Positions 15,754 through 62,290 of a DNA stretch of 64,000 nucleotides are shown here, piece by piece. The position numbers were made by a program, and so were the translations under genes. The notes under the pieces were generated by a model that saw only the letters and a program-made list of their open reading frames with translations, had not been told where the DNA came from and made no database searches. Numbering within the stretch: position 1 is the first letter of the stretch; every line of letters starts with the position of its first letter. Source of the DNA: Armatimonadota bacterium (lineage in GTDB: Bacteria > Armatimonadota > Chthonomonadetes > Chthonomonadales > CAJBBX01); contig JAPLCQ010000064.1 of assembly GCA_026392115.1 (NCBI GenBank), positions 64,698-128,697 on the forward strand, written 5' to 3'.

Positions 15754-15908
15754 CTCCCTCCCCTTGCCGCGCAGCGGGAGGGGGAGGGCTGGGGTGGGGG
15801 TTTCGCCTTTAGATCTATCATCTTCCGATTTATCGGCCTTACGGCAACCCCCATCCCGGCCTTCCCCCTCCGCGGCTTCGCCGCGCAAGGGGAAGGAGCA
15901 GGCGGGCC
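15754..15908. repeat. Composite palindromic GC-rich repeat element, full copy A (left arm, AT-richer core, right arm)
   Basis: The left arm (15754-15802) is CTCCCTCCCCTTGCCGCGCAGCGGGAGGGGGAGGGCTGGGGTGGGGGTT. The core runs 15803-15841. The right arm (15842-15908) is CGGCAACCCCCATCCCGGCCTTCCCCCTCCGCGGCTTCGCCGCGCAAGGGGAAGGAGCAGG. The arms are imperfect reverse complements of each other, and each contains its own nested hairpin (CCTTCCCC...GGGGAAGG). Related copies lie at 16299-16357 and 36807-36957. Confidence 0.85.
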
Positions 15909-15913
15909 GACTG

Positions 15914-16288
15914 CTACGGGGCCTCGCTCAGCCCTTGGCACTCCTCCCAAAGCCACTGCAACCGTGCGTCCGTGTCGCGCATCAGGTCACCGGCGGCGAT
16001 CCTGATGGTGCGCACTCCGGCCGCCGCCAGCGCCTCGTCACGAGCCGCGTCGCGCTCGGCTCTGTCGGAGTGATCATCGCCATCGACCTCAACACATAGG
16101 CGTAGGCTTGGGCTGTAGAAGTCCAGAACGTAGGGTCCGAAGGGATGCTGGCGGCGGAAGCGATGGCCGACCGCGCCGGCCCGAAGGCGCGCCCAGAGCA
16201 CGCGTTCCGGCATCGTCATCTCGCGCCGTAGCCTGCGAGCGTTGTTGACGGCAGCGTGGTCGGTATTACGATGCAATGGAATGGTCAT
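15914..16288 (-). CDS. DUF559 (Vsr-like) endonuclease-domain protein
   Basis: 124 aa. RRLRREMTMPERVLWARLR...RFRRQHPFGPYVLDFYSPSLRLCVEVDG..H matches the DUF559 core as I know it. Confidence 0.85.
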   Translation of the reverse strand: MTIPLHRNTDHAAVNNARRLRREMTMPERVLWARLRAGAVGHRFRRQHPFGPYVLDFYSPSLRLCVEVDGDDHSDRAERDAARDEALAAAGVRTIRIAAGDLMRDTDARLQWLWEECQGLSEAP

Positions 16289-16298
16289 GACCTAGCTC

Positions 16299-16357
16299 AC
16301 CGGCAACCCCCATCCCGGCCTTCCCCCTCGCGGCTTCGCCTCGCAAGGGGAAGGAGC
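16299..16357. repeat. Solo right-arm copy B of the palindromic repeat element
   Basis: CCGGCAACCCCCATCCCGGCCTTCCCCCTCGCGGCTTCGCCTCGCAAGGGGAAGGAGCAAG is nearly identical to 15842-15902 (one 1-bp indel and a few substitutions). Together the two copies bracket the DUF559 gene as direct repeats. Confidence 0.85.
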
Positions 16358-16388
16358 AAGTCAGCCGCGCGTCACCGCTCTGTTTGCC

Positions 16389-30997: not shown

Positions 30998-31963
30998 CTA
31001 CATCAGGGCGGTCATCTCCTCCAGCTTGTCGGCCTTAAGGATCGCCACCAGCAGCGCGTCCAGCCGCTCGGGGTCACTGATGCCCTGGATGCGCGCCGTG
31101 ACATGCTCAGGCAGTTCGCCGAGCTTGCTGCGCATCTGTGCCAGCAGGGACCGGCGCTGGCCCGCGAGCAGGCCCTCGGCGATGCCCCTCTCGATGCCCT
31201 CCGCGATGCCCTCCGCGATGCCCTTCTCGATCCCCTGTTCGATGCCCTTCTCGATGCCCTTCTGTTCGAAGATGTTCACCATGCTGGTTACCTCTGTGTC
31301 GGGCCGCATCGCGGCGAGTTGCGCGAAGACGGCTTCCTGCTCGTCCGACAATACCATATACGCGCCCACGACGCCCGCCAGGATGTATCGCCGCGCTTCG
31401 TTGGTTTGGGCTGCCGCAACGGCTCGGAGCGCCTCCAGCTTGTGCTGGGCCGGCTCCAGCTGTCCCGGCCGCATCAGGGCGCTGACGGCCGGCGCCAGCA
31501 GGTTCGCCGAGTTCAGGAACTGCGCCGCCTCGAAACTCGGAAGCGCTACCGCCCAGTAGCGCAGCGTGCAGTAGGTGTCGCCGAACAGTTCTTCACGGTA
31601 GGTCTCGAGCGCCAGGCCCGCGCGTCCCGGCGCCAGGTAGAGCACGATCGGCAGCACCGGCAGCTTCTTCCGGAAGCGCAGAAGGCAGTAGTACTCCCAC
31701 ATGCGCCGGTCCATCTCCGGGTCGCGGCCGCTCTGCACCTCCACGTGGATCGCGATCAGCTCGCGCTGGCCGTCGCGGCAGGCGACCTCGGCGACCAGGT
31801 CGGGCCTTCGAACATCACCGGTGGGCGGGTCGGCAAAGAGCTCAGGATTGCTGAACTCCACCGTCGATAGGTCGATCTGCTCGGCGATGCGCGGGAAGAA
31901 GAGCTCCATGAACTCGCCGAAGAATTCCGTAAGCACTTCCTTCCAGATCTGGTCGTGGTCCAC
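30998..31963 (-). CDS. Rpn-family recombination-promoting nuclease / PD-(D/E)XK putative transposase with DUF4351-like tail, copy 1
   Basis: 321 aa. Motifs DHDQIWKEVLTEFFGEFMELFFP, PDLVAEV and IAIHVEVQSGRD (D...E-x-Q nuclease motif) are present. The C-terminal low-complexity peptide is GIEKGIEQGIEKGIAEGIAEGIERGIAEG, followed by LPEHVTARIQGISDPERLDAL. Confidence 0.8.
   Translation of the reverse strand: MDHDQIWKEVLTEFFGEFMELFFPRIAEQIDLSTVEFSNPELFADPPTGDVRRPDLVAEVACRDGQRELIAIHVEVQSGRDPEMDRRMWEYYCLLRFRKKLPVLPIVLYLAPGRAGLALETYREELFGDTYCTLRYWAVALPSFEAAQFLNSANLLAPAVSALMRPGQLEPAQHKLEALRAVAAAQTNEARRYILAGVVGAYMVLSDEQEAVFAQLAAMRPDTEVTSMVNIFEQKGIEKGIEQGIEKGIAEGIAEGIERGIAEGLLAGQRRSLLAQMRSKLGELPEHVTARIQGISDPERLDALLVAILKADKLEEMTALM
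31175..31270. repeat. 12-bp tandem repeat (about 8 units) inside the Rpn copy 1 coding sequence
   Basis: The plus-strand units CTCGGCGATGCC / CCTCTCGATGCC / CTCCGCGATGCC x2 / CTTCTCGATCCC / CTGTTCGATGCC / CTTCTCGATGCC encode the (G-I-E/A-x)n peptide. Confidence 0.85.
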
Positions 31964-33336: not shown

Positions 33337-33383
33337 AGTCCAAAGTCTAAAGTCTAAAGTCTAAAGTCACAAGTCTAAAGTCC
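33337..33383 (+). repeat. Heptanucleotide tandem repeat AGTCTAA (about 6.7 units)
   Basis: AGTCCAA AGTCTAA AGTCTAA AGTCTAA AGTCACA AGTCTAA AGTCC. It starts 8 nt after the binding-protein stop and ends about 8 nt before the GGAGG of rhaM. It is an AT-rich island in a GC-rich genome. Confidence 0.9.
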
Positions 33384-33402
33384 GGGGCGGGGAGGTGTGG
33401 GT

Positions 33403-33726
33403 GTGAGGCGATACGGACAGGTGTTGAGGCTGCGTGAGGGGGCCTTGGAGCGGTACTCGGAGCTGCATCGGGCGGTCTGGCCCACGGTGCTGGCGAAGAT
33501 CGCCGAGTGCGGCATCCGCAACTACACCATCTACCACAAGGACGGCTGGCTCTTCGCCACGTTCGAGTACCACGGCGACGACTTCGACGGCGACATGGCC
33601 GCCATGGCCGCCGACCCGGAGACCCAGCGCTGGTGGGCCGAGTGCAAGCCCCTGCAGGAGCCCCTGCCCACCCGCAACGAGGGCGAGTGGTGGGCCGGCA
33701 TGGAGGAGCTTTTCCACTGCGATTGA
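33403..33726 (+). CDS. rhaM: L-rhamnose mutarotase
   Basis: (M)RRYGQVLRLREGALERYSELHRAVWPTVLAKIAECGIRNYTIYHKDGWLFATFEYHG.DF matches the RhaM family. The likely start is the GTG at 33403, 7 nt after GGAGG. The track start at 33397 is also a GTG. Confidence 0.85.
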   Translation: MRRYGQVLRLREGALERYSELHRAVWPTVLAKIAECGIRNYTIYHKDGWLFATFEYHGDDFDGDMAAMAADPETQRWWAECKPLQEPLPTRNEGEWWAGMEELFHCD

Positions 33727-33748
33727 GGCCGGGTGTAGGAGGGCATAG

Positions 33749-36700
33749 ATGCCTGTAGAAACCATAATCGCGGGCTCGGTGGCGGGCGCCGTCATCAAGG
33801 CCGTGGCAATGTACTACCTGGGCGGCAACGTGCTGCAGCAGGCCGCCATGGATGTGCTGGACCTGGCCACGGCGCTGACCCAGGATGAAGCTGATGCCAG
33901 GAAGACCAAGCGCGTACTGGAGTCGGCCGGCGAGAAGGTCGAAGCGGAAATGCGGCGCATCTTTGCCACCCAGGCCAGCGGGCTGTCGCCTGAGTCGGTG
34001 GAGCCGTTGGCGCTGACCTTTCGCGATGCCATCCAGCTCCACGCGCCGACACCCGAGTTGCTCCGCGATCCAACGCTGAACCCCGAGATGATCTTCGCGC
34101 GGCTTCGCGAGGGTGCGTTCGCCCCTAAGAGGAGGTACACCGCGCCGGGCACACCGGAATGGCGCGACTTTGGCCCTGCCGAGGAGCAGTTTCTGGAGCG
34201 CACGCTTAGGGACTACAGCATCCGCCTCATGTCGGTGATCGACACCATGCCTGCTCGGCCGGCCGTGCGGGAGTTGGCTCGGCGGGAGGCCGAGTGTCAC
34301 GCGAAGCTTGAGGCGATGGTGCAGGGCTGGGTCCTGGTGCTCGAGCAATCCCTCAGCAGCAGCAGGAACGAGGACTGGCAGCACTTCCACGAACAGTACT
34401 GCTCAGAGGTAGCTCGGGAGCTGGATCGGGTGGAGCTATTTGGGGCCAACCTGAACAGCTGCCGCCGCTGGTCGCTGAGCGTTGCGTATGTGACGCTCGG
34501 GGTGGGTGAGGCCGGAGGCGATGCGCGGGAGGCGTCCGAGACCTCGTTCGTCGATCAGGTGGTTCGTGCGCACCCGCGCCTGCTGATCCACGGCGCCGCG
34601 GGTTCCGGCAAGACCACCCTGGGCCAGTGGCTCGCCGTGCGGGCCGCCAGGCAGGACCAGCTGGAGCAGGCGCCCGAGCTTCGGGGCCTCGTACCGTTCT
34701 TCATCAAGCTCCGGCGGTTCTCCGACGGCAAGTTTCCCGCTCCCGAGGAGTTCCCGAAGTGCGCCGCGCCCAACTACGGCGGCGCCGTGCCGCCCGGATG
34801 GGTGCAGACCCAGATGAAGGGTGCGATCATCATCCTGGACGGCGTGGACGAGCTGTCGGAAGCCGCTCAGGAGAAGGCCAGGGACTGGATCATTGGCCTT
34901 GTAGAGACCTTCCCGGAGGCGCGCTACGTGGTCACTTCGCGGCCCTACGCCGCCAAGGACGGCTGGCTGACGAAGAGCGGCTTCGCGGAAGCCATGCTCA
35001 TGCCCATGCGCGAGCACAATGTGGCCACCTTCGTCGAGCAGTGGCACAAGGCGGTGGCCGAGGGAGCCACGGAGGATAGCGAGAAGGCGGCGCTGCTTGC
35101 CGATGCCGGTATGCTGGCCAAGCAGATCGTCGGTGACCATGCATTGCGTGCCCTGGCCACCACGCCTCTCCTCTGCGCCCTCCTCTGCGCCCTCTACCAT
35201 GAGACCCACAGGCACCTGCCCAAGGTGCGGATGCAGCTCTATCGGGCCTGCTGCGAGATGCTGGTCGACCGCCGCGACCGCGAGCGCGACGTGATGATCG
35301 ACCGGGACTACCCGCGACTGGAGCAAGACGCCAAGCTGCGTCTGCTCCAGGATGCGGCGCTCTGGATGGTGCAGGCCGATTGCAGGGACCAGAAGTGGGA
35401 CGAGGTCATGCTCTGGCTGGAACCCCGCGTGGCCGGCCTGCGCGGCATGCCGCAGGGCATGGGGGCCGGGCATGTGCTGCGCCTGCTCACCCATCGGACA
35501 GGGGTGATGCGCGAGCCCGCCGCCGGTGTGGTGGACTTCGCCCACCTGGTGCTGCGCGACTACCTGGCGGCCGAGGCCTTTGTGCGGGAGCGTCACTTCG
35601 GTCCCCTGGATGCCCTCGCCTCGCGGCCGGGTGAAGGTGAGATCATAGCGCTGGCGGCGGGTATCGCCGGCAAGAAGGATGCGGAGCGGATCATCAAGAC
35701 GCTCCTGAACCCGCCCGTATGGCGCCGGCGGGAACGGGTCCGGCGGTCGCTCCTGGGCGCCGCGTGCTTGGAGACCGTCGTGGAGCTTGAACAGGGCCTC
35801 CGCACTCAGGTGGAGTCCCGCCTGGCCGACGTCTTCCCTATCAAGAGCCGGTCCGACGCGGAGATGGTCGCCCGCGCGGGCGAGATGGCGGTACCGCACC
35901 TCAGGTACGACGCGTCGGCCTCACCTGCCACGATGCGTTGGTGCGCGGCCGCGCTGGCGCTGATGGACAGCGACGGCGCGCGTGTCGCCTTGAACGAGTA
36001 CGTACCGGCCATGGATCGCGACCCCGGCCTGCGGATCGAGCTGCTGCGGGCGTTGGGCGGGCGCCTGAACGGCCAGGAGTATGTGGGCATTCCGGGTGGC
36101 GCGTGTGAGTTCGACGCGTCCATCGGCGCCGTCAGGATTCAGCCGTTCCAGTTGGGCAAGTACCCGGTGACCGTGGCGCAGTACCGGGAGTTCACGGAGG
36201 TGACCGGTCGTCGGATGCCGAAGCCGCCGGACTGGGGCTGGGTCCCGGACCACGCCATGGTGAACGTGTCGTGGTTCGATGCGCGCGACTACTGCGAATG
36301 GACCGGCGGTCGGCTCCCCACCGAGGAGGAGTGGGAGTGGGCCGCTAGCTGGGATCAGGCGAAGCGTCGTTGTCGTGTCTACCCATGGGGCGACGAATGG
36401 GACCCCGCCGCTTGCGCCAACTCCGTTGACACTCGGCTGGCTGGCACCGTGGCTGTGGGTAGCTACCCTTCCGGCGTCAGCCCTTGCGGTTGCTACGACA
36501 TGGCAGGCAATGTGTGGGAGTGGTGTGCCAGTCCATATGAAAGAGATGCCGATGATAAGCAGACGGATGTCTCCTGTGTGCTGCGCGGCGGGTCGTGGCA
36601 CAGCGCCGACCCGGACGCCTTCCGGTGTGCCTACCGCAGCATCAACCGCCCGGACGCCCGCTTCGTCATCTACGGTTTCCGTGGCGCCAGGACTGTCTGA
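33749..36700 (+). CDS. NLR-like STAND NTPase: helical N-terminal domain of unknown type, NACHT module, helical repeats, and a C-terminal FGE-sulfatase (SUMF1/EgtB/PvdO-like) domain
   Basis: 983 aa, AGGAGG 6 nt upstream of the ATG.
- aa 1-25: hydrophobic helix IIAGSVAGAVIKAVAMYYLGG.
- aa ~225-250: pre-NACHT block LDRVELFG...LSVAYVTL.
- aa 282-289: Walker A GAAGSGKTT.
- aa ~359-367: Walker B IIILDGVDE, followed by VVTSRP.
- Winged-helix block: FAHLVLRDYLAAEAF.
- aa 778-983: FGE fold (YPVTVAQYREF, VNVSWFDARDYCEW, RLPTEEEWEWAA, GNVWEWC, LRGGSW). Confidence 0.85.
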   Translation: MPVETIIAGSVAGAVIKAVAMYYLGGNVLQQAAMDVLDLATALTQDEADARKTKRVLESAGEKVEAEMRRIFATQASGLSPESVEPLALTFRDAIQLHAPTPELLRDPTLNPEMIFARLREGAFAPKRRYTAPGTPEWRDFGPAEEQFLERTLRDYSIRLMSVIDTMPARPAVRELARREAECHAKLEAMVQGWVLVLEQSLSSSRNEDWQHFHEQYCSEVARELDRVELFGANLNSCRRWSLSVAYVTLGVGEAGGDAREASETSFVDQVVRAHPRLLIHGAAGSGKTTLGQWLAVRAARQDQLEQAPELRGLVPFFIKLRRFSDGKFPAPEEFPKCAAPNYGGAVPPGWVQTQMKGAIIILDGVDELSEAAQEKARDWIIGLVETFPEARYVVTSRPYAAKDGWLTKSGFAEAMLMPMREHNVATFVEQWHKAVAEGATEDSEKAALLADAGMLAKQIVGDHALRALATTPLLCALLCALYHETHRHLPKVRMQLYRACCEMLVDRRDRERDVMIDRDYPRLEQDAKLRLLQDAALWMVQADCRDQKWDEVMLWLEPRVAGLRGMPQGMGAGHVLRLLTHRTGVMREPAAGVVDFAHLVLRDYLAAEAFVRERHFGPLDALASRPGEGEIIALAAGIAGKKDAERIIKTLLNPPVWRRRERVRRSLLGAACLETVVELEQGLRTQVESRLADVFPIKSRSDAEMVARAGEMAVPHLRYDASASPATMRWCAAALALMDSDGARVALNEYVPAMDRDPGLRIELLRALGGRLNGQEYVGIPGGACEFDASIGAVRIQPFQLGKYPVTVAQYREFTEVTGRRMPKPPDWGWVPDHAMVNVSWFDARDYCEWTGGRLPTEEEWEWAASWDQAKRRCRVYPWGDEWDPAACANSVDTRLAGTVAVGSYPSGVSPCGCYDMAGNVWEWCASPYERDADDKQTDVSCVLRGGSWHSADPDAFRCAYRSINRPDARFVIYGFRGARTV

Positions 36701-36806
36701 TTGCGGCTTGCGGCTTTACGACTTTACCACTTGAGCCGTGCGCAGCGCGGCTCGGTGTTGACGTTGACCTTGACGTGGGTACGGCGCGTAGCGCCGCCGA
36801 TTTGTG

Positions 36807-36957
36807 CCCTCCCCTTGCCGTGCCGCGACAGGGGAGGGTAGGGTTGGGGTTATGTCGTTGTGATATATATCTTCCATTTTAGAACCCTTACACCGACTCC
36901 CATCCCGGCCTTCTCCCTCCGCGGCTTCACCGCGCAAGCGGAAGGAGCAGGGCGGCC
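36807..36957. repeat. Composite palindromic GC-rich repeat element, full copy C (empty, no internal gene)
   Basis: The left arm is CCCTCCCCTTGCCGTGCCGCGACAGGGGAGGGTAGGGTTGGGGTT. The AT-rich core runs 36852-36890 (ATGTCGTTGTGATATATATCTTCCATTTTAGAACCCTTA). The right arm is CACCGACTCCCATCCCGGCCTTCTCCCTCCGCGGCTTCACCGCGCAAGCGGAAGGAGCAGG. By eye the right arm is about 90% identical to copies A and B. Confidence 0.85.
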
Positions 36958-37035
36958 CAGAACATGGCGATCATCGTCAAGCGCCAAGCCCGCGGCGCGG
37001 TGGCGAGGCCGTTTGTCCAACGGAGGATGCCCGAT

Positions 37036-39084
37036 ATGAACGCCGCGCTCGTCTTGTGCGCCTTGCTGGTGGCCGCGCTGCCTGTGTGCGCCGCGCCGGT
37101 CTTCCATGTGTCGCCGGCAGGAAGCGACGACGGCCCCGGGAGCGCCGGGCGGCCCTTCGCCACGCTGGAGCGCGCCCGTGATGCGGTGCGATCGTTGCGG
37201 CGGAGGGGCGGCGCGCGGGTGGTCCTCCATGCCGGCGCCTACGAGCGGGCGGCCGCCTTCGAGTTGACCGAGGCCGACGGCGGGGCGCCGGGCCGCCCGG
37301 TTGTCTGGGAAGCCGCGCCGGGCGCCGAGGTGCGGCTGCTGGGCGGGCGGGTCGCGCCCGCGTCCCTCTTCCAGCCCGCCTCCGACCCTCTAATCGTGGA
37401 CCGGCTCGATCCGGCCGCCCGTGGCCGCGTCCTCGTCGCGGGCTTCGATGCGCTGGGCCTGAAGGGCTCCGAGGCGTTCCCCACCACCTACCACGGCGCG
37501 CCGCCCGGGCCGGAGCTCTTCTTCAACGGTGAGCGGCTACGGCTGGCCTGCTGGCCCAACAAGGGTTGGGCGCACATCGCCCGCGTGGTGGACCCCGGTT
37601 CCGAGCCGAGGGAGGGCGACATGGCCGGCCGTCTGCCGGTCTTCGCGTACGACGGCGACCGCCCCGCCCGCTGGAAGGCCGATGCGGGCGTCTGGCTCCA
37701 GGGCTACTGGCGCTTCGACTGGTACGACCAGGTCATCAATGTCGGCGCCATCGACGCGGCGGCCCGCACCATCACGCTGGCCGCGCCGCACGTCTACTCG
37801 CTGAAGCCCGGCAACCCCTCGCCGCGCCGGTTTCGCGCGCTCAACGTGCTGGAGGAGCTGGACGAGCCCGGCGAGTTCGTCATCGATGTGGCGGGCCGCC
37901 GCGTCTTCCTCTGGCCGCCGGCCGACCCGTCCGCCGCGCGGGTGGAGGTCTCGACGCTGAACGCGCCGGTCATCGCCCTGCGCGGCGCGTCGGACCTCAC
38001 CATCAGGGGCCTCGCCGTGGAGTGCGGCCTCGCCGGCGGCATCGAGGTCGAGGGCGGACGGAGTTGCGTCATCGACGCTTGCCGGGTCCGAAACCTGCGC
38101 CATACCGGCGTCCGGGTCGCCAGCGGGACGCTGCATCGGGTTCAGAACTGCGACATCCACGACACGGGCACGGGCGGGCTGGAGATGCAGGGCGGCGACC
38201 GCAAGACGCTGCAACCGGCCGGTCACCAGGCGCTCAACAACCACATTTGGCGCTTCTCCATTCACCAGTTCACCAGCGCCTACGGGCTGATCCTGGGCGG
38301 CGCGGGGAACCGGGCGGCCAACAACCTGATCCACGACGCGCCGCACCAGGCCGTCTCGCTGGTCGGCAACGACCACGTCTTCGAGCTGAACGAGGTGCAC
38401 AGCGTCTGCATGGAGACGGACGACTGCGGCGCGCTCTATAAGGGCCGGAACCCCTCCTGCCGGGGCAACCTGATCCGCTGGAACTACTGGCACGACATCG
38501 GGAGCCCCATGGGCCACGGCAACGCGGCCGTCTACTTCGACGACGGCGACGGCGGCGACACGGTCCTCGGTAATGTCTTCGTGCGGTGCGGCGACCCCGG
38601 CATCGGCTCGTTCGGCACGGTCTTCTCCCACGGCGGCCACGACATCCGGGCCGATAACAACCTCTTCGTGGAGTGCAAGCGCGCCCTGGGGTCGGCGCCG
38701 TGGGACTACCCGCGCTGGCTCGACGCGGTGCGCGGCGGGCAGGACTGCTTCTTCACCGAGAAGCTGCTCAAGGAGGTCGACATCACCCGGCCGCCCTACA
38801 CCACGCGCTACCCGGAGCTGGCGGGCTTCATGGACCCCAAGCCCGAGACGCCCCGCGTCAACCGCGCCGCCCGCAACATCCTGGTCCGCTGCGGCCAGGT
38901 CTCCGGCGGCGCCTGGCAGCTGGAGCCCGACTCCACCTGGTCCACCAACGAGGACCCCGGCTTCGTGGACATGGCCGCCGGCAAGTACACGCTGAAGAAG
39001 GGCGCCGAAGCCTTCCGCCGGGTACCCGGCTTCCAGCCCATACCGTTCGGGAGGATGGGGCTGCAGCGGCGGGGCCGACGGTGA
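37036..39084 (+). CDS. Secreted right-handed parallel beta-helix repeat protein, second
   Basis: The start is the ATG at 37036 (GGAGG 9 nt upstream). The signal peptide is MNAALVLCALLVAALPVCAAP, followed by FHVSPAGSDDGPGSAGRPFATLERARD. Beta-helix coils include LTIRGLAVECGLAGGIEV, IHDTGTGGLEM and NNLIHDAPHQAVSL. Confidence 0.8.
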   Translation: MNAALVLCALLVAALPVCAAPVFHVSPAGSDDGPGSAGRPFATLERARDAVRSLRRRGGARVVLHAGAYERAAAFELTEADGGAPGRPVVWEAAPGAEVRLLGGRVAPASLFQPASDPLIVDRLDPAARGRVLVAGFDALGLKGSEAFPTTYHGAPPGPELFFNGERLRLACWPNKGWAHIARVVDPGSEPREGDMAGRLPVFAYDGDRPARWKADAGVWLQGYWRFDWYDQVINVGAIDAAARTITLAAPHVYSLKPGNPSPRRFRALNVLEELDEPGEFVIDVAGRRVFLWPPADPSAARVEVSTLNAPVIALRGASDLTIRGLAVECGLAGGIEVEGGRSCVIDACRVRNLRHTGVRVASGTLHRVQNCDIHDTGTGGLEMQGGDRKTLQPAGHQALNNHIWRFSIHQFTSAYGLILGGAGNRAANNLIHDAPHQAVSLVGNDHVFELNEVHSVCMETDDCGALYKGRNPSCRGNLIRWNYWHDIGSPMGHGNAAVYFDDGDGGDTVLGNVFVRCGDPGIGSFGTVFSHGGHDIRADNNLFVECKRALGSAPWDYPRWLDAVRGGQDCFFTEKLLKEVDITRPPYTTRYPELAGFMDPKPETPRVNRAARNILVRCGQVSGGAWQLEPDSTWSTNEDPGFVDMAAGKYTLKKGAEAFRRVPGFQPIPFGRMGLQRRGRR

Positions 39085-40225: not shown

Positions 40226-43200
40226 CTACTGCAGCGTCGGCATGGCCGCGGTTTCGCCCCGCATCTGCCTCGCCTGCTCCTCGGGGGAGTAGACGCCGTA
40301 GAAGAGGGCGTTCAGGTCGATCCACTCGGCCAGGGCCCGGCGCTCTTCGCCGCTGAGCGTGACGCCGTGGTGGCCCGATGCCAGCAGGCGCATGAGGCGG
40401 CTTCCGCGGGCGCCGTAGGCTCCGCCGGGCGGCGTCACCTGCACCTGGTTTCGCGCGCCGAAGCGGGGAACCAGCGCCTTCGCGGCGTTGCGGAGGTTGG
40501 TGGCCCCGCCGTCGAAGGTCCGACCGCCGCAGAGCGACCAGTAGGAGGCGGAGAAGGCCCCGCGCGGCGTGCCGGTCAGGTCCAGCGTGCCCGAGTCGGG
40601 GCCGTGGCAAGAGACGCAACGCCGGTCGAGGACGGGCTGCACCGAGGCCATGTAGGAGTAGGGGCGGCCGTCGCGCGGACCCGCGAGGAGCTTGGAGGGC
40701 GGCCGCCGCATGGCCATGACCGCGCCCGAGGCGGTGCGGCCGCCTTCGGACCTGCCCTCGTGGCAACCCACGCACGAGATGCGCTCGCCGCGCTGCAGGT
40801 AGGTGAGAGAGCGCATGGTCTGCACCGCCGCGCCGTCGGCGTCCAGCGCCTGGAAGAGGATCGGCTTCATGGCGGGGACCGTGAAGCGCGCCGAGCCGTC
40901 GGCCTCCACGGGCACGACGCCCAGCACCGCCCGGGCGTTCTCCTCGCCGGCCAGGCCCACGGCGGGCGCGTCGGCGATGTTGGTCGTCTTCGGGAAGATC
41001 TGCACCACTCGCAGCTGCTTCACCGTGCCGCGGGCGATGCCGGGCAGGCCCCGGTAGACGTCCTGCAGCGTCACCTCGCCGGTATCGGGCGCGGACTTCG
41101 GCAGCGTGGATGCCGGCGCGGGCGGGCAGGGGCGCGGGCGGAGCGGGATGGGCGTGGTGGCGCCGATCTCGGGATCGCGGTAGAGGAGCTCGCGGTTGCC
41201 GTGGGCGTCCTGCAGGTAGATGCCCAGCGCGTCGGGCCGGTTCGCGCCGGGCTCCCAGACCAGCGGGTAGGGGCTGTAGGCGACCAGGAAGGCGCGCTCC
41301 GAGAGCGGCCAGGGGCTGCAGTAGTACTCGCGGATGTCGTTGCCCTCGGCCTCGGGGAAGGGCACCGCGGGCGTGATGCGGGTGAGCGCCTTGTGGCCGT
41401 TCTCGCCCTTGGTCGGGTCGAGGACGACGATGGAGCCCGCCGTCATGGAGTGGTGCGCCGAGGCCGTGAAGACCCATTTGGCGGTGCCGGGGATGGGCTG
41501 GGCCTGGAAGGAGCAGTGGGGCGAGGGCGTGGCGTTGCCCCAGAGGTTGGCCGGCGCGGTGCCGTCGGGGCGCGTGGTCCATAGGTTCTGGTGGGTCACG
41601 GCGTCGCGGTCGATGTAGTCCCATCGGGCGTAGACGATCTGGCCGTCGCGCCCCACGTTGGGGAACCATTCGTTGGTGTCGTGCATCGAGAGCAGGCGCA
41701 GGCCGGAGCCGTCGGGCTGCACGCGGTGGAGCGTGTAGACGTGGGTCCGCTTGCTGAAGCCCGCCCCGAAGCAGCGCGAGTAGCCGCCGCGCCGCGTAGA
41801 GCTGAAGACGATGCCGCCGTCGGGCAGGTAGTTGGGCATCAGGTCGTCGAAGGGGCCGCGCGTGATCTGCCGCAGCCCGCCGCGGAGGTCGGCTTCATAG
41901 ACGTGATAGGAGCGCTCCTCGGGGCTCTCAACGCCCAGCGCGGAGGGGTCGGGCTCGGCGGCGCGGCAGTCGACCCAGGAGAAGACCACCCGCTTGCCGT
42001 CATATGAGAGGCGGGGCTCCAGCACGCTGCCGTGGGCGAGGCGCCCGCCCAGGATGTCGCGGCACTGGAGCGAGAATCCGGGTCGGTCCAGCAGGAAGAC
42101 GCCCCCGCCGGCCCGCGCCCGCCAGCCGTAGTACTGCATGACGAGGTGGCTGTAGGAGGGCGGCACGCGCTTGTTGAAGAGGATGGGCGTGCGCGGCAGG
42201 AGCGGGTTGGCCAGCGCCACGCGCCGCTTGAGCCACCGGACCCGGAAGTAGAGCGACCGGGCCTGCGCCTCGGTGAGGTCGGGACGCAGCGAGAGCGGGG
42301 CCATGGAGCGCCACTGCGCGCGCTCGGTTGCCAGCGGCATGGCGGCGGAGCGCGCGAGGTCGGCCATGAGCCGCCAGGCGCCCTCCAGGTGGGTCCGCGC
42401 GGCCATGGTGAACGAGCGGGGCTGGGCGGGCGCCTCGGTCGAGGCGGTGAGGCCGTCTTCCCTGAGCCAATCGGCGGCGACGAGCCACCAGAGGCCCAGT
42501 TCCAGGCTTCCCGAGCCCGGCGCGGCGGCCACTCCCATGGTCGCGCAGGCCAACCGCAATGATCGCCGGAGCCCGGCCATGGGCGCGGCGCACGCGGCGT
42601 CGCGCAGGGCCTCGTCCAGGGCGCGGAAGCCGTTGGCCGAGGGGCCCTTGTAGGCGGCAAGCACCGTGGTCGAGCTACCGGCGCGGAGCCGAACGGAGCC
42701 ATCGGCTGTCAGTTCGGCCTCCACCGGGCCGGGTTCGGCCATGGCGACGGCCACGCCGCCGGTGTCGTCGGCATCGGCCAGCACGGCCACCGGGAGCGCT
42801 CCGGACGGCAGCGCCGCGCGTTCCGTGGCGGGCAGGCGGCAGACGAAGGGCGAGCTGTCGGCACGGATGCCGCTGAGCGCATGACCGGCGGGACCGGCGG
42901 CGTCGGCGCGCTCCATCTCGTAGGACCAGCCCTGGGCGCCCTGCTTGCCGGCATCGAACGCGGCGGAGGCCCGCAGGCGGCGGCCATCGGGGAGCGTGAC
43001 CACGGGATCCCAGTAGGTGGTGTCGCAGGGGATGTCGCCGCGCTTCAGCGCCACGAAGCGGAGCGCGTCGCCCTGCCGAACCTGCAGCGTGAGGCCGGGG
43101 TCCACGCCGGTGGGATCGTTGTAGGCGATGTCGGCCGACCAGACGGTGCGGGCATTGAGGCGGATCTCGGCGCGGATCCCGTCGCCGCCGTTCAGGTCGG

Positions 43201-43645
43201 CCTTCCGCACCGGGCCGCCGACGGTGATGCGACCGCCCACGGGCAGGGTGAATCGCCGGACCGAGGCGTTGGCCGTGCCGGGGTGGTGCCAGTCCTTCCC
43301 CACGCGGGTCCAGTCGGGTCCGCCCCAGTAGGTGCTGCCGTACCAGGTGTCGGACCGGTACTCCAGCGGCGCGTAGCGGCCGGCCGCATCGTCCTGCTTG
43401 CCGCCGAAGAGCCACTCCAGGCGCTCTCCCGGTGCGGGCCGCACCAGCACGGCCGTGCCCGAGGCCAGCGGCGTGAGGGCGCCTGCCGGCGCGGCGGTGA
43501 TCCGGCGAGCCATGGCCCCCTCGGGCAGCGACGCGAAGGGCACCTGTGGGCGTCCGAACGTGGCGCCCAGGGCGAGAAGGCACAGCAGGGCTGCGAGGGC
43601 GACGGATTGGGCCGCGCGGGCGCGGTGGAGGTGCATACGTGACAT
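40226..43645 (-). CDS. Giant secreted PD40/TolB-like beta-propeller protein with two C-terminal CXXCH motifs
   Basis: 1139 aa with a signal peptide (AQSVALAALLCLLALGATFG). The central region has PD40-like blades (LSYDGKRVVFSW, YLPDGGIVFSS, VGRDGQIVYARWDYIDR, TRPDGTA). The C-terminus carries CVGCH and CVSCH, the latter in a planctomycete-cytochrome-like context (VQPVLDRRCVSCHGP..LDL). Confidence 0.8.
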   Translation of the reverse strand: MSRMHLHRARAAQSVALAALLCLLALGATFGRPQVPFASLPEGAMARRITAAPAGALTPLASGTAVLVRPAPGERLEWLFGGKQDDAAGRYAPLEYRSDTWYGSTYWGGPDWTRVGKDWHHPGTANASVRRFTLPVGGRITVGGPVRKADLNGGDGIRAEIRLNARTVWSADIAYNDPTGVDPGLTLQVRQGDALRFVALKRGDIPCDTTYWDPVVTLPDGRRLRASAAFDAGKQGAQGWSYEMERADAAGPAGHALSGIRADSSPFVCRLPATERAALPSGALPVAVLADADDTGGVAVAMAEPGPVEAELTADGSVRLRAGSSTTVLAAYKGPSANGFRALDEALRDAACAAPMAGLRRSLRLACATMGVAAAPGSGSLELGLWWLVAADWLREDGLTASTEAPAQPRSFTMAARTHLEGAWRLMADLARSAAMPLATERAQWRSMAPLSLRPDLTEAQARSLYFRVRWLKRRVALANPLLPRTPILFNKRVPPSYSHLVMQYYGWRARAGGGVFLLDRPGFSLQCRDILGGRLAHGSVLEPRLSYDGKRVVFSWVDCRAAEPDPSALGVESPEERSYHVYEADLRGGLRQITRGPFDDLMPNYLPDGGIVFSSTRRGGYSRCFGAGFSKRTHVYTLHRVQPDGSGLRLLSMHDTNEWFPNVGRDGQIVYARWDYIDRDAVTHQNLWTTRPDGTAPANLWGNATPSPHCSFQAQPIPGTAKWVFTASAHHSMTAGSIVVLDPTKGENGHKALTRITPAVPFPEAEGNDIREYYCSPWPLSERAFLVAYSPYPLVWEPGANRPDALGIYLQDAHGNRELLYRDPEIGATTPIPLRPRPCPPAPASTLPKSAPDTGEVTLQDVYRGLPGIARGTVKQLRVVQIFPKTTNIADAPAVGLAGEENARAVLGVVPVEADGSARFTVPAMKPILFQALDADGAAVQTMRSLTYLQRGERISCVGCHEGRSEGGRTASGAVMAMRRPPSKLLAGPRDGRPYSYMASVQPVLDRRCVSCHGPDSGTLDLTGTPRGAFSASYWSLCGGRTFDGGATNLRNAAKALVPRFGARNQVQVTPPGGAYGARGSRLMRLLASGHHGVTLSGEERRALAEWIDLNALFYGVYSPEEQARQMRGETAAMPTLQ

Positions 43646-47249: not shown

Positions 47250-50200
47250 CTACATGCCGCGGATGGCGCCACCGCCGGGCTGGACCCGCCTCCGTTCCTC
47301 GGGCTTGAACCAAGCCGCGTCCCAGTAGCGCCGTTCTGCGGCGTACATATCGATGGCCGCTGTTGGGTCCAGTGTCGCGGGCAGCACGCCGTACCGCTGC
47401 ATCTCGCGTATCCAGCCGGGGTGCGGACGGAAGCCAGGCATATCGAACCGCTTGATCTCCGCCAGTCGCGCCCCGGCGGCGGCGACGGCGTCCAGCATGA
47501 GCAGATAGTCCGCATCGTTCGTATCCGCGAAGACCTCGCCGCATCGGCCCCAGCCGCCCGCGGCCTTGCCCAGCGGCGCCAGCAGCAGGGGCGACAGAGC
47601 CGGGCGGGTCAGGTTGTACAGCAGGTGGTTCGCGTAGGTGCGGCGCGGGTCGTCGGGCGACATGTCGATCCACGGTTGCAGGCCCTGGTCGTCCGACACG
47701 CTGCCGGGAAGCGCACGCGGGCCCGTGTGGCAGCCGCCGCAGCGCCGCTGCTGCGCTGCCATGGCCCTCTGCGTCTGCGGCCACTGCAGATCGCGCCGGT
47801 CAAGCTGATTCACCACGTACCCGCCGACCATCCCGGCGCCCAGGGCGGCGTAGGTGCCTGGGTAGGGCGCGCCGCAGTCGATCCAGAGCCGAACCATGAG
47901 CCGCTCGCGCTCGTTGAGGGCCGCACCGTGGTGCGTGCCGTCCACCTTGGCCATGAGGGCGCTGGCCACGCTGCCCAGCGTGCGCGGCGCGTAGTTGGAG
48001 ACGGGCCGGTTGCGGCCGTCGGAGACCTGGCTCCGGGCGAAGAGCGCGAAGTAGCTCTGCGAGTAGAGCGGGCCCCGGTCTCCCTCGAGCACGATCCGCC
48101 CCGCGCGCCGCTGGAAGCTGTGGCAGCCCACGCAGTGGCGGTCCCAGATAGGCTGGATGTCACGCGGGTAGTCGTAGACGTCCGGCACGCCCCCGATGGG
48201 GGCGATCTTCGCCGGCGGAAGCGACATGGCCGCGGGACGCTGCGTCGGCGCCAGGGATCGCCGCTCATGGCAGCCCACGCATCCCTGCGTCTCGCCGGGC
48301 GCCAGACTGGCGAAGCTCTGCATCCGCTTCACGGGCGAGCCCTGCTTATCCAGCGCGATGAAGAAGAGGCTCCGCAGAGCGGGCGCCTCGAAGAAGGCCG
48401 AGCCGTCCGAGGCTACGGGCACCGTGCCCAGGATGCGCTCCAGCGTGAAGGTGCCGCCGTAGGAGAGGGGCTCCATGCCGCCGGTGAAGTTCACGGGCTT
48501 CGGCAGCGACTCCATCACCATGAGCGACGCGATCTCCCCGCGCCGCACGCCCGTCATCTTGCGCCCAGCGTATACGTCGGAGAGCATGAACTTCCCAGTG
48601 GCCTCGGCGGAGGCCAGCCGGTGCGTGGTGACGGTGAACTCCCTGGGCCGGGCGACCAGCGGGCGCGGCTCATGGCACTGGTACCCCGCGCCCGACTCGG
48701 CCGGGGGCAGCCGGTAGAGCTGCTGCACGCCGCCTCGGCCGTTGCCGACGACCAGCGTGTCGCCCGACGCGGCCAGGATGCACTCCTCGGTGAACGCCCA
48801 GGGGTCGCGGAACCGCTGGCCCGGCGCCACGCGGCGGGAGCTGACCGGATCGTCGGGACCGCCGTTGGGGCTCACGATGCGTATCTCGCCGTCGTGCTCC
48901 ATCTGCCCGTGCCCCGGCGAGTAGATGCAGACGACCTTGTCGGTTCCGGGGACGGGCTTGGCGTCGATCATCACGACGCCGGGCATCTGGTTGCCGTAGT
49001 AGACCGTGTGGCCCGTGCCGTCGGGGTTGACCGACCAGAGATGGTGGTAGTGGACCTGGCTCCGGTCGATGTACTCCCAGCGGGTGTAGAGCAGGCGGCC
49101 GTCGGGCATGGGCCAGGGCGTGTTGTCGTGCTCGATGTTGGCGGAGATGGGCCGGATGCCCTGCCCGTCGTCGTCGCACCGGTAGAGGGTCGCCACCGGC
49201 GTCCGCCAGCAGTTCACCCAGCGCCGGCTGCGGCTGCTGATGAAGGCGATGCCGCCGTCCGGCAGGTAGGAGGGCTCGAAGTCGTCGAACGGACCCTCGG
49301 TGATCTGCCGCAGGCCGGAGCCGTCCGGCGCGATCTCGTACAGGTGGTAGTGCTCCGTGCCGCCCGGCCTATAGGAGAAGAGGATGCGGCTGCCGTCGTA
49401 GCTCACCTGCGGGTCGCGGATGCCACCCCGCTCGGTGGTCAGGATCGGTCGCGTCTTGCCCGTCCGCACGTCCAGGCGGAGCAGGCGCGCGCCCTCGTTG
49501 TACATGCGCTGGTTAGGGTCATTAGCATCGTAAGCAAAGTTGGCATACCAGTGCCCGTCGTTGCCCATCTTGCGCGCCACGAAGACAACCTCGCGTACGC
49601 CCGCCATGGGCCCCGCAAGCGCCTCCTGAACGATGTCTGGCGTCGCCGCGACGGGAGCGTTGGGCTTGTCGGAGAGCTCGATGAAGTCGTAGACCATCCA
49701 GCTGCCCTGGTCCAGTGTGATCTCGATCTGGTTGGCGCCGGCCCGTATCGCGCCCTCGGGCAGCGGGACGGTCAGCACGCCGCCCTCGCCCATCTGCATC
49801 GGGTCGAAGGCCATGCTCACGTCCTGCGCCGTGTCGGGCAGCCGCCGCTGGAGCGCCTGCGCGCCGTTGACGGCCAGGGTGATGCGGCTGGGCTCCCAAG
49901 CCGAGAGCCAGCCGATATGGAGCCACCTGCGGCCCGCCGCGGAGGGCGAGTCGAAGCGGATGGCGAAGGTATGCGGCGAGCCGCCGGCCCAACCATCCTT
50001 CGTGCTGGGGTGGATGAAGGGCCAGTCACGCGCCGTGGAGCGGCCCACGGTGTAGACCACCGGACCCGCGAAGCGTTGCGGGAAGACGGTGTAGTCTCGG
50101 TCGGCGCATCCGAACTCGGACGCCAGATGGTCGGGTGAGCCGATGCGGAAGAGCGCGGCCTCGGTGCGCGGCGCCTGGGCGGCCTGGGTGCGGGCCGCGG

Positions 50201-50330
50201 CGACCCGCACGGGGCGTACCGCGGCGGCGGTTGCGGCGCCCGGGTTCCGCGGCCGCGTCGGCGATGCCGCCGAGAAGCCCAGCAGCGCCGTCAGCGCCGT
50301 GAGCATGATCACGAGGGGTCCGTTTCGCAT
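47250..50330 (-). CDS. Giant secreted PD40/TolB-like beta-propeller protein with three C-terminal CXXCH motifs (paralog of 40226..43645)
   Basis: 1026 aa with a signal peptide (MRNGPLVIMLTALTALLGFSAAS). The N-domain is FRIGSPDHLASEFG...WMVYDFIELSD, a layout I associate with lyase/CBM-like modules. The PD40 blades match the paralog (VSYDGSRILFSY, YLPDGGIAFISS, MPDGRLLYTRWEYIDR, VNPDGTG). CVGCH, CVGCH and CGGCH are present. Confidence 0.8.
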   Translation of the reverse strand: MRNGPLVIMLTALTALLGFSAASPTRPRNPGAATAAAVRPVRVAAARTQAAQAPRTEAALFRIGSPDHLASEFGCADRDYTVFPQRFAGPVVYTVGRSTARDWPFIHPSTKDGWAGGSPHTFAIRFDSPSAAGRRWLHIGWLSAWEPSRITLAVNGAQALQRRLPDTAQDVSMAFDPMQMGEGGVLTVPLPEGAIRAGANQIEITLDQGSWMVYDFIELSDKPNAPVAATPDIVQEALAGPMAGVREVVFVARKMGNDGHWYANFAYDANDPNQRMYNEGARLLRLDVRTGKTRPILTTERGGIRDPQVSYDGSRILFSYRPGGTEHYHLYEIAPDGSGLRQITEGPFDDFEPSYLPDGGIAFISSRSRRWVNCWRTPVATLYRCDDDGQGIRPISANIEHDNTPWPMPDGRLLYTRWEYIDRSQVHYHHLWSVNPDGTGHTVYYGNQMPGVVMIDAKPVPGTDKVVCIYSPGHGQMEHDGEIRIVSPNGGPDDPVSSRRVAPGQRFRDPWAFTEECILAASGDTLVVGNGRGGVQQLYRLPPAESGAGYQCHEPRPLVARPREFTVTTHRLASAEATGKFMLSDVYAGRKMTGVRRGEIASLMVMESLPKPVNFTGGMEPLSYGGTFTLERILGTVPVASDGSAFFEAPALRSLFFIALDKQGSPVKRMQSFASLAPGETQGCVGCHERRSLAPTQRPAAMSLPPAKIAPIGGVPDVYDYPRDIQPIWDRHCVGCHSFQRRAGRIVLEGDRGPLYSQSYFALFARSQVSDGRNRPVSNYAPRTLGSVASALMAKVDGTHHGAALNERERLMVRLWIDCGAPYPGTYAALGAGMVGGYVVNQLDRRDLQWPQTQRAMAAQQRRCGGCHTGPRALPGSVSDDQGLQPWIDMSPDDPRRTYANHLLYNLTRPALSPLLLAPLGKAAGGWGRCGEVFADTNDADYLLMLDAVAAAGARLAEIKRFDMPGFRPHPGWIREMQRYGVLPATLDPTAAIDMYAAERRYWDAAWFKPEERRRVQPGGGAIRGM

Positions 50331-57699: not shown

Positions 57700-57729
57700 C
57701 CCTCCGTCGTACCCGATCAGACGCACGAC

Positions 57730-57758
57730 GGCCCCGGAGCAACCCGCGCTCCGGGGCC
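57730..57758 (+). terminator. GC-rich hairpin downstream of paralog 1 (candidate intrinsic terminator, no U-tract)
   Basis: GGCCCCGGAGC-AACCCGC-GCTCCGGGGCC: an 11-bp perfect stem, 31 nt after the stop codon. Confidence 0.5.
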
Positions 57759-57812
57759 GTTCCCCATTGCCGCCCGTGTCGGCTATCATGGTGTGAGGGG
57801 GCTTCCGCCGAT

Positions 57813-58856: not shown

Positions 58857-58925
58857 GGCGGAGCATCGCCCAACGCGGGCGCCGACGGCCTGCCAGCAGC
58901 GGCTCGTACCTCGTTCGCACAGCGC

Positions 58926-58954
58926 GGCCCCGGAGCAACCCGAGCTCCGGGGCC
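58926..58954 (+). terminator. Second copy of the same hairpin, downstream of Rpn copy 2
   Basis: GGCCCCGGAGC-AACCCGA-GCTCCGGGGCC. The stem is identical to the one at 57730-57758. Confidence 0.5.
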
Positions 58955-59223
58955 GTCTTGCGTCTCGGCCGCGCCCTTCCGTATCATCCGCCGGGGTTGG
59001 GGAACTCTTGGTCCAGTATGTAAGTCATTCCTCCCGGCGCGGCCTCGGATCACGGTGCCGTGCGTTTGTCGGCACCGTGGCGACTGCCCGCCGGCCCGGT
59101 CGGCACGTACGCGCCGCTGCGCCGTGCCTTCTTCGTAAGTACAATGCGCCACGAGCAACGGGAGCCCGCGCTGCGGCGTAAGACCCCGTAGGTTCGTGTG
59201 CGTGAGCGCAGGAAGGACACCCT

Positions 59224-62079: not shown

Positions 62080-62110
62080 CCCGTCCGCCGTACCCGATCA
62101 GACGCACGAC

Positions 62111-62139
62111 GGCCCCGGAGCAACGCGAGCTCCGGGGCC
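62111..62139 (+). terminator. Third copy of the hairpin, downstream of paralog 2
   Basis: GGCCCCGGAGC-AACGCGA-GCTCCGGGGCC. The 30 nt preceding it also match the paralog-1 flank (GTACCCGATCAGACGCACGAC). Confidence 0.5.
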
Positions 62140-62290
62140 GTCGTGCGTGGGCGCGTTGTATGACAATGCAGCCGATTGGAACTTTCGACCTCCGCCTCTC
62201 GTGGAGTCTCCATATGTGATCAGGCATCTGGGCCGTCCCACACCTGCTGGACTCTGGGCTTGAGGTGGGCGCGGCCAAAGGAGATCAACG

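Follow-up and report, generated by a model that had tools for sequence, protein, structure and literature searches.

The stretch of DNA analysed here, referred to as the window, comprises 64,000 nucleotides (nt) from an Armatimonadota bacterium (contig JAPLCQ010000064.1), and near its middle lies a single gene whose 983-amino-acid (aa) product combines three domains: NNH1, NACHT and a domain with the fold of formylglycine-generating enzymes (FGE). A preliminary description, made from the sequence alone, took this product for a stand-alone NLR-like STAND NTPase. Our analyses agree with that assignment, place the protein in the NACHT clade, and indicate that its FGE-fold sensor is non-enzymatic and ends in a tip with the signature of a diversity-generating retroelement (DGR). 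The open reading frame (ORF) for the 983-aa product and its strong ribosome-binding site are as previously described, and every one of the motifs quoted at that time (Walker A, Walker B, VVTSRP, FAHLVLRDYLAAEAF and IIAGSVAGAVIKAVAMYYLGG) is found in the protein. NCBI holds an identical protein (MCX6359636.1) under the name 'SUMF1/EgtB/PvdO family nonheme iron enzyme [Armatimonadota bacterium]', and JGI names its ortholog 'formylglycine-generating enzyme required for sulfatase activity'. Both names are misleading, since they ignore the NACHT domain, the NNH1 domain and the loss of the catalytic cysteines; database names such as 'formylglycine-generating enzyme' and 'nonheme iron enzyme' mislead for proteins of this type in general. 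The gene and its domains are as follows.

33737..33742, plus strand: Shine-Dalgarno sequence AGGAGG, 6 nt 5' of the ATG
33749..36700, plus strand: NNH1-NACHT-FGE gene, ATG start, 983 aa
33749..34534, plus strand: NNH1 domain, all-helical, aa 1 to about 262 (Pfam PF22733 over aa 10-191)
33755..33820, plus strand: helix alpha1 at the N terminus, aa 3-24, a hydrophobic segment with many small residues (consensus of the family G12, A14, K17, W23, L24)
34580..35053, plus strand: NACHT nucleotide-binding domain, aa 278-435 (PF05729, E 9e-20)
34592-34618, plus strand: Walker A motif GAAGSGKTT, aa 282-290, including K288
34826-34852, plus strand: Walker B motif IIILDGVDE, aa 360-368
34928-34945, plus strand: motif VVTSRP, aa 394-399
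35537..35581, plus strand: winged-helix block FAHLVLRDYLAAEAF, aa 597-611, with the invariant H599 (motif and homolog alignment)
35594..36073, plus strand: helical spacer, aa ~616-775, common to NNH1-NACHT-LRR (leucine-rich repeat) relatives
36113..36691, plus strand: FGE-sulfatase or C-type-lectin-fold sensor, aa 789-981 (PF03781, E 1.4e-42)

All three Pfam domains exceed their curated cut-offs, and they follow one another in the tripartite order of bacterial NACHT (bNACHT) proteins, with NNH1 in the effector position at the N terminus, NACHT in the center and the FGE sensor at the C terminus. The NACHT core, previously recognized from its motifs, is confirmed by profile search (71.6 bits versus a cut-off of 26.7). 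A D[GAS]hDE signature after Walker B, which sets NACHT apart from other STANDs (Koonin & Aravind), is present as LDGVDE at aa 363-368. Structure prediction leads to the same conclusion. A full-length AlphaFold2 (AF2) model has a predicted local distance difference test (pLDDT) score of 85-96 over aa 270-770, and the top 50 listed matches in a Foldseek search of this model against the PDB are all NACHT NLRs (e.g. NLRP3, NLRC4 and NOD2), with E values down to 2e-10, in keeping with an NBD-HD1-WHD fold common to this protein and the solved NLRs. Residues K288, D364, D367, E368 and H599 are invariant across 58 homologs, and H599, judged by its position in the family, would correspond to the histidine that was altered in bNACHT16 and to H443 in NLRC4. 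The likeness to animal NLRs such as NLRC4, NLRP3 and NOD2 therefore covers the NACHT fold (E ~1e-10), Walker A and B and the winged-helix histidine. However, the window protein carries no CARD or PYD, NNH1 has no animal counterpart, and the sensor is an FGE domain rather than LRRs.

The N-terminal region had been regarded as matching no effector type that could be named, and in this respect the preliminary description must be revised. Directly N-terminal of NACHT, aa 10-191 match NNH1 with 38 bits (cut-off 27), and the family to which the region belongs is this one rather than any well-characterized housekeeping family. NNH1 was defined by Kibby et al. (10.1101/2022.07.19.500537) and is typical of their clade 4. 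A hidden Markov model built from 18 homologs places it at the extreme N terminus in 225 of 235 homologs. The conserved pre-NACHT part reaches to about aa 250, with invariant D226, G232, L243, Y247 and L250, and conservation within NNH1 is strongest in the C-terminal half that adjoins NACHT.

In the window protein, hydrophobicity is unusually uniform along the first helix of NNH1 (Kyte-Doolittle 1.72; mean Eisenberg 0.56, moment 0.02), and this helix overlaps the segment IIAGSVAGAVIKAVAMYYLGG (aa 6-26), which had been proposed to insert into a membrane. The hydrophobicity is compatible with membrane insertion, although homology lends this idea no support. A structure model of NNH1 derived from 106 sequences is all-helical (pLDDT 77), and its best Foldseek match in the PDB has an E value of 0.54, with a non-significant match to the Rx coiled coil at E 1.6. 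The best E value in a search of PDB sequences with an NNH1 profile is 0.06, and the proteins concerned are unrelated. Neither of these searches, nor Pfam, revealed fold or profile similarity to pore-forming N-domains of the CC/ZAR1, HeLo or MLKL four-helix-bundle (4HB) types, which leaves the earlier suggestion of a pore former without backing from fold or sequence.

For the FGE domain, and specifically its C-terminal part, the best sequence match in the PDB is the inactive paralog SUMF2 (1y4j), and the other similarities there are to EgtB, OvsA and FGEs. Opposite the 'LCHDSYC' of Streptomyces FGE (6muj/2q17), the window protein has a gap at the first cysteine and a proline at the second, such that both catalytic cysteines of the CxxxxC pair are missing. 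This loss implies that the domain is a binding module and not an enzyme. SUMF2 (also called pFGE) similarly lacks the cysteine pair, but it is a stand-alone eukaryotic protein of the endoplasmic reticulum (ER) with neither an NTPase nor a hypervariable tip. Models for the sulfoxide synthases EgtB, SenA and OvoA match by their C-terminal FGE-like part only and not over the N-terminal iron-binding domain, with 25-78 bits against cut-offs of 360-420, and an active FGE or EgtB enzyme was rejected on the basis of the missing cysteines and these partial equivalog-model matches. The FGE part of the full-length AF2 model is poor (pLDDT ~30) because only two homologs cover this domain. Its nearest sequences (43-48% identity) are found in multi-FGE proteins with Por_Secre_tail, PEGA and other domains of secreted or surface type. 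No signal peptide or confident transmembrane segment is predicted in the 983-aa protein, and sensing by this protein must therefore be intracellular. A Pfam scan found no DNA-binding or other regulatory output domain in it, and NCBIfam and Rfam scans gave nothing informative. That FGE-type domains serve as sensors of bacterial STANDs had been mentioned as a computational observation. Such a description does exist, but the class has already been given a more specific standing, in that FGS/CLec domains on STANDs have been described as 'antigen receptor-type' sensors, some of which are DGR-diversified.

More than 250 homologs of aa 1-770 were found at 28-38% identity, and these are NNH1-NACHT proteins of cyanobacteria, actinomycetes and planctomycetes, most of which have LRR sensors. 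In Table S1 of Kibby et al., NNH1-NACHT architectures fall in clade 4, among them the experimentally tested bNACHT16 (NNH1+NACHT+Imm-LRR) and fusion proteins in which a calcineurin-like, trypsin or PNP domain precedes NNH1. The same table has NNH2+NACHT+FGE and NACHT+FGE in clade 1, and NNH1+NACHT+FGS/FGE is absent from it. An exhaustive search among 1.84 billion representatives recovered plain NNH1-NACHT-FGE from the cluster of the window protein alone; a second such cluster (P0002, 36% identity) is present in another database, and one relative has the order SIR2-NNH1-NACHT-FGE (P0121). The chassis looks like a clade-4-type NNH1-NACHT protein in which the LRR sensor has been swapped for a DGR-type FGE sensor, with the swap point directly after the helical spacer, where this placement in clade 4 follows the nearest homologs and not a tree. 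The NNH1 N terminus aligns in register with that of bNACHT16 (pairwise E 0.004), and the NACHT core, the helical spacer to about aa 770 and the single-gene organization are likewise shared with clade 4, whereas the sensor is FGE/CLec in place of leucine-rich repeats. Clade-1 NACHT proteins with FGS sensors, several of which are predicted to be DGR-diversified, resemble the window protein in their tripartite logic and their single C-terminal FGE-fold sensor. However, their N-domain is NNH2 or none, and the window protein appears to belong to another NACHT lineage, again as judged from nearest homologs rather than a tree.

The variable repeat at the C terminus

The final part of the sensor and the sequence that follows it contain three further features.

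36566..36682, plus strand: DGR-type variable repeat (VR), aa 940-978 (core 36632-36682; framework YR-NNNN-P-xN-R-NNNN-GFR)
36714..36728, plus strand: motif CTTTACGACTTTACC, 14 nt past the stop codon, in the same place after the 36%-identical homolog
36733..36753, plus strand: GC-rich hairpin GAGCCGTGCGCAGCGCGGCTC with a 9-bp stem, 33 nt past the stop codon

The VR was characterized by comparing the window gene with its 91%-aa-identical ortholog in locus L003 (L003 11548-14505). Differences at codon positions 1, 2 and 3 number 38, 37 and 148 in aa 1-900, but 11, 15 and 2 in aa 940-984 (Fisher P 1e-9). When positions 1 and 2 are pooled and set against position 3, the counts are 26:2 in the VR versus 75:148 elsewhere. 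The ratio dN/dS is 5.1 in aa 940-984 versus 0.14 in aa 1-900, and the latter are under ordinary purifying selection. Among the variable codons, all 15 that end in C retain it (the pairs include AGC/CTC, ATC/GAC, AAC/GGC, CGC/TTC, GCC/AAC and TTC/GGC), the other two end in T (GAT/GGT and TGT/CGT), and the intervening codons CCG, CGC and GGT TTC CGY show no variation. Template repeats of DGRs carry AAC codons, and the pattern seen here is the one to which such elements give rise.

Independent evidence was obtained by setting adenine at the variable sites, which yields a predicted template core, TACCGCAACAACAACAAYCCGG, that was used to scan metagenome contigs. Eight of the ten matches are true template repeats (TRs) that read VLRGGSW-NN..-YR-NNNN-P-DN-R-NNN[IV]-GFR. 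These adjoin RVT_1 reverse transcriptases (RTs; L087 and L090) and NACHT+FGE or nSTAND1+FGE targets (L087, L088 and L089). A longer pattern for the full VR and TR had 0 matches in the metagenome contigs. Within the 51-nt core at 36632-36682, adenine occupies 16 of the 17 allele-differing positions in the independent templates, and 31 of 32 non-adenine sites are invariant (hypergeometric P 2e-9).

The window VR shares with DGR targets of the STAND-CLec type (Kaur et al. 2020; Dore et al. 2024, PMC10907252; L087-L089 in this study) the framework VLRGGSW...YR-NNNN-P-DN-R-NNNx-GFR at the extreme C terminus, and the adenine-specific variation; past the stop codon, its pyrimidine motif and GC hairpin resemble theirs. 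The motif CTTTACGNCTTTACC is located 14-16 nt past the stops of the window gene and of the 36%-identical homolog, and has no further occurrence in the window or among 94 loci; the DGR targets of L088 and L089 have CCTTTAC(C/T)GCCTTACCC at the corresponding place. A GC hairpin also follows the DGR targets of L087-L089 and the 36%-identical homolog, and by visual count the window hairpin and that of the L087 target have ~20 of 23 bases in common. DGR targets need a GC-rich hairpin or cruciform past the VR, with a 7-10 bp stem, a 4-nt GRNA loop and a distance of 4-34 bp (Guo et al. 2011, PMC3240598). The window hairpin has a 3-nt loop, GCA, rather than GRNA, its loop and spacing depart from the phage consensus, and its folding energy is no better than that of shuffled sequences. 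This hairpin could serve in target recognition by a DGR or as a terminator, and the resemblance of the 3' flank to those of true DGR targets is suggestive only.

In contrast to these known targets, the window VR is accompanied by no TR, RT or accessory gene in the window or within 10 kb of its orthologs, and it is apparently fixed in each lineage. It is an orphan, remote or fossil target. A DGR cassette in cis was rejected after negative blastn, VR/TR-pattern, RT-motif and self-comparison searches, among which a degenerate VR/TR pattern run on the loci and self-comparison of L001, L003 and L092-L094 revealed no template repeat. Ongoing diversification was also rejected as a candidate, because identical VRs within each lineage argue against active hypermutation at the consensus level. 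The VR would thus be a remote target served by a DGR at another place in the genome, of the sort reported in Thiohalocapsa, or else a fossil of past diversification.

Two other features of the comparison with L003 can be recorded here, neither of which is accounted for by simple DGR homing. A 3-codon indel separates the two VR alleles, and dS climbs along the gene, from 0.155 in NNH1 to 0.26 in NACHT, 0.33 in the spacer and 0.56 in aa 786-939 of the FGE domain.

The insertion site

The surroundings of the NNH1-NACHT-FGE gene, hereafter the NLR gene, include the following features.

33397..33726, plus strand: rhaM (L-rhamnose mutarotase), the neighbor at the insertion site, upstream of the NLR gene
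36806..36957, no strand assigned: palindrome-containing repeat of ~150 bp, outside the NLR gene, at which synteny with L003 ends
36964-39084: gene for a Beta_helix protein, downstream of the NLR gene

Only 22 nt separate the rhaM stop codon from the start of the NLR gene, and the neighborhood encodes an ABC transporter, a periplasmic binding protein (PBP), rhaM, and Laminin_G_3, glycoside hydrolase (GH)-like and Beta_helix proteins. The preliminary description correctly named the mutarotase upstream and the beta-helix protein downstream, and it was also right that the NLR gene is functionally unrelated to this sugar locus. The closest genomes are two lake metagenome-assembled genomes (MAGs) labeled 'uncultured Chthonomonas sp.' (Armatimonadota), with a PBP that is 97% identical. 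One of these (L003) has the NLR gene (91% aa identity) directly after rhaM. The other (L002) is colinear on both sides and has a clean 3.2-kb gap that corresponds exactly to the NLR gene, which provides the presence/absence polymorphism that had been proposed as a check. The full protein is encoded near the PBP gene in 0 of 78 other PBP loci, ~40 of which have a detectable rhaM; in one of them, L010, the sole match is a weak one to the FGE domain. In addition, GC content at third codon positions (GC3) is 0.84 in the NLR gene versus 0.93-0.95 in its neighbors. The NLR gene is accessory, and its absence from L002 and the 78 other PBP loci distinguishes it from a universally syntenic core gene.

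In L003, an imperfect direct repeat of the rhaM 3' end and the Shine-Dalgarno spacer brackets the NLR gene (~11418-11545 and 14725-14790). The second of these copies has a 57-nt internal deletion, and the window retains the first copy only. Synteny between the window and L003 stops at 36804, where the ~150-bp repeat starts, and this point is a rearrangement breakpoint. The repeat had been described as a palindromic element that elsewhere in the window carries a nuclease gene, and indeed it occurs three times: the copy at 36806-36957 is 79% identical to 15756-15908 and partially matches 16278-16366, and the last two copies flank an ORF for a 124-aa DUF559 endonuclease-like protein (15914-16288, minus strand). 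The Beta_helix gene is located upstream and inverted in both L002 and L003, and thus its adjacency to the NLR gene in the window is the result of rearrangement. No promoter or terminator was predicted between rhaM and the NLR gene, or after the NLR gene.

Function and alternative explanations

The domain identities, the loss of FGE residues, the DGR signature, the purifying selection acting elsewhere in the protein and the accessory status of the gene were established by the analyses above. Given these characteristics, we consider it probable that the gene encodes a single-polypeptide conflict sensor of the bNACHT type that was horizontally acquired and inserted after rhaM, with a tip written by a DGR and with NNH1 as its output. 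In such a system, the dead C-terminal FGE/C-type-lectin-fold domain would serve as the ligand receptor, and its binding tip (aa 940-978) would have been written by a DGR that is located elsewhere in the genome or has since been lost. Binding of a ligand, most likely an invader-derived molecule, would release autoinhibition, whereupon the NACHT module would oligomerize in an ATP-dependent manner and bring the NNH1 helical domains together, leading to growth arrest or death of the infected cell. We infer the ligand, the antiviral role and the mode of NNH1 action, whereas toxicity is known from a relative only. Specifically, bNACHT16 carrying NLRC4-type hyperactivating mutations (H443-equivalent or T584P) inhibits growth of E. 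coli (Kibby et al.). Output through NNH1 is supported by analogy with this toxicity, in which NNH1 alone is in the effector position, and by the near-universal N-terminal location of NNH1. The earlier account, in which the N-domain had no demonstrated function, is outdated with regard to this tested NNH1-NACHT-LRR protein.

Several observations weigh against this conflict-sensor interpretation. The gene resides in a sugar-transport and polysaccharide region rather than a defense island, and a search of the window with PADLOC-DB 2.0 returned P-loop noise only and no real match. The single-gene conflict-system layout proposed earlier is upheld insofar as the gene is accessory and its product a stand-alone NLR-like protein, but not with regard to these two hallmarks. 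The short gap after rhaM, with no predicted promoter or terminator, suggests co-transcription with the sugar genes. Neither blastn of the 3' end of the gene nor a degenerate VR/TR pattern found a template repeat in the 64-kb window, no reverse-transcriptase motif is present in its six frames, and neither a template repeat nor an RT turned up in the 21 kb surrounding the ortholog or next to the 36% homolog. Moreover, the VR is identical in 5 of 5 members of the ortholog lineage and in 3 of 3 members of the second cluster, and diversification may therefore be extinct. The Foldseek search of the PDB and the profile search of PDB sequences found no relative of NNH1 with an established mechanism, and the literature contains no experiment on the window protein or on any FGE-sensor STAND. 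Finally, SIR2, TIR, trypsin, calcineurin-like or PNP domains accompany NNH1 in certain relatives, which could mean that NNH1 alone is not the effector.

A more specific proposal is that NNH1 represents a new membrane-disrupting executioner, whose helix alpha1 (aa 3-24), conserved and nearly always free, would be released upon NACHT oligomerization and insert into the membrane in the manner of plant resistosomes and HeLo/MLKL, in a protein whose tip is rewritten in trans by a distant DGR. We regard this combination as improbable, but if true, a membrane-inserting NNH1 together with a DGR acting in trans would amount to a programmable single-protein NLR pore.

A similarly doubtful alternative is that NNH1 functions as an adaptor or regulatory pre-NACHT module, in which case the protein would need a separate effector encoded elsewhere in the genome or would sequester its ligand. 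Relatives that carry a classical effector besides NNH1 are consistent with this possibility, such as the SIR2+NNH1+NACHT+FGE protein P0121, the NNH1+NACHT+LRR+TIR proteins P0010 and P0039, and proteins in which calcineurin, trypsin or PNP_UDP_1 domains are joined to NNH1+NACHT. So too are the concentration of NNH1 conservation in the C-terminal half near NACHT and the absence of a pore-former fold match. However, bNACHT16 has only NNH1 at the effector position and is toxic when hyperactivated in E. coli, a heterologous host that is an unlikely source of a dedicated partner. Furthermore, NNH1 is the sole, extreme N-terminal module in 96% of homologs, and a conserved partner gene adjoins none of the three lineages.

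Sugar regulation, kin recognition and catalysis are each less likely than a conflict sensor. Of these, the explanation that survives best, while still improbable, is a receptor for self/non-self or kin recognition, or for a cue unrelated to viruses (for example a glycan of the cell surface or the environment), rather than an antiphage system, with a DGR-written tip that would read conspecific variants as in fungal HET NLRs. This alternative was raised by Dore et al. (PMC10907252) for DGR-diversified STAND-CLec proteins, and it would suit both the placement of the gene in a polysaccharide-use locus and the secreted or surface-type character of the proteins with the nearest FGE domains. Yet the lack of a signal peptide or confident transmembrane segment points to intracellular sensing, and the experimentally characterized bacterial NACHT and Avs proteins all sense phage infection. 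It is less likely still that the protein serves the rhamnose/sugar operon as a housekeeping signal-transduction ATPase and senses a sugar-derived ligand through its lectin-like fold. The gene is co-directional with PBP-rhaM at a distance of 22 nt with no intervening predicted promoter or terminator, and its linkage to rhaM is repeated in L003, but it is missing from L002, where the sugar genes are otherwise colinear, and from the 78 other PBP loci. Likewise, the 36% homolog is found in an unrelated gene context, Pfam detects no DNA-binding or regulatory output domain, and a tip with a dN/dS of 5 and mutations at A sites would be unexpected in a metabolite sensor. An active formylglycine-generating or EgtB/PvdO-type enzyme, as implied by the NCBI and JGI annotations, the strong FGE-sulfatase match and a sulfatase gene ~10 kb away in the contig of the ortholog, can be dismissed with near certainty, given the absent catalytic cysteines, the partial matches to EgtB, SenA and OvoA, and the fusion of the domain, which carries a hypervariable tip, to a NACHT NTPase.

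The protein is of a kind already described, namely a bacterial NACHT protein with an FGE 'antigen receptor-type' sensor that is a DGR target. Its domain combination, NNH1-NACHT-FGE, is rare, and its VR is an orphan with no DGR nearby. In bacteria, NACHT proteins that bear an FGE/C-type-lectin sensor are frequently cited as the nearest counterpart of antigen receptors, and NNH1 is among the commonest N-terminal modules of bacterial NACHT proteins. The locus offers a compact natural test case, with one gene, no obligatory neighbors, a sister genome with an empty site, and two natural alleles whose difference is almost confined to the DGR-written binding tip. This makes it well suited to a first functional study of both NNH1 and an NLR with an FGE sensor.

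Other repeats in the window

Additional repeated sequences occur elsewhere in the window. Approximately six tandem AAGTCT hexamers, one of them a variant, are located at 33342-33382 in the 67-nt gap between the PBP gene and rhaM. Six overlapping copies of a repeat with a 12-nt period (GCCCTC.GCGAT-like) at 31172-31267 encode a tetrapeptide repeat inside a 321-aa ORF (30998-31963, minus strand) with a weak match to DUF4351. Two minus-strand genes, 40226-43645 (1139 aa) and 47250-50330 (1026 aa), each have a match to the 'hydrazine synthase alpha middle domain' (HZS_alpha) and share a 77-nt stretch with 81% identity (41803-41879 and 49241-49317). Toward the end of the window, three tandem paralogous genes (54871-57699, 59224-62079 and 62523-64000) exhibit 60-84% nucleotide identity in register, with spacings of 4380 and ~3000 nt. 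The two complete paralogs (54871-57699 and 59224-62079) end in a Big_3_5 Ig-like domain, and a conserved GC-rich hairpin is present near these tandem genes at 57721-57760, 58925-58965 and 62100-62148.

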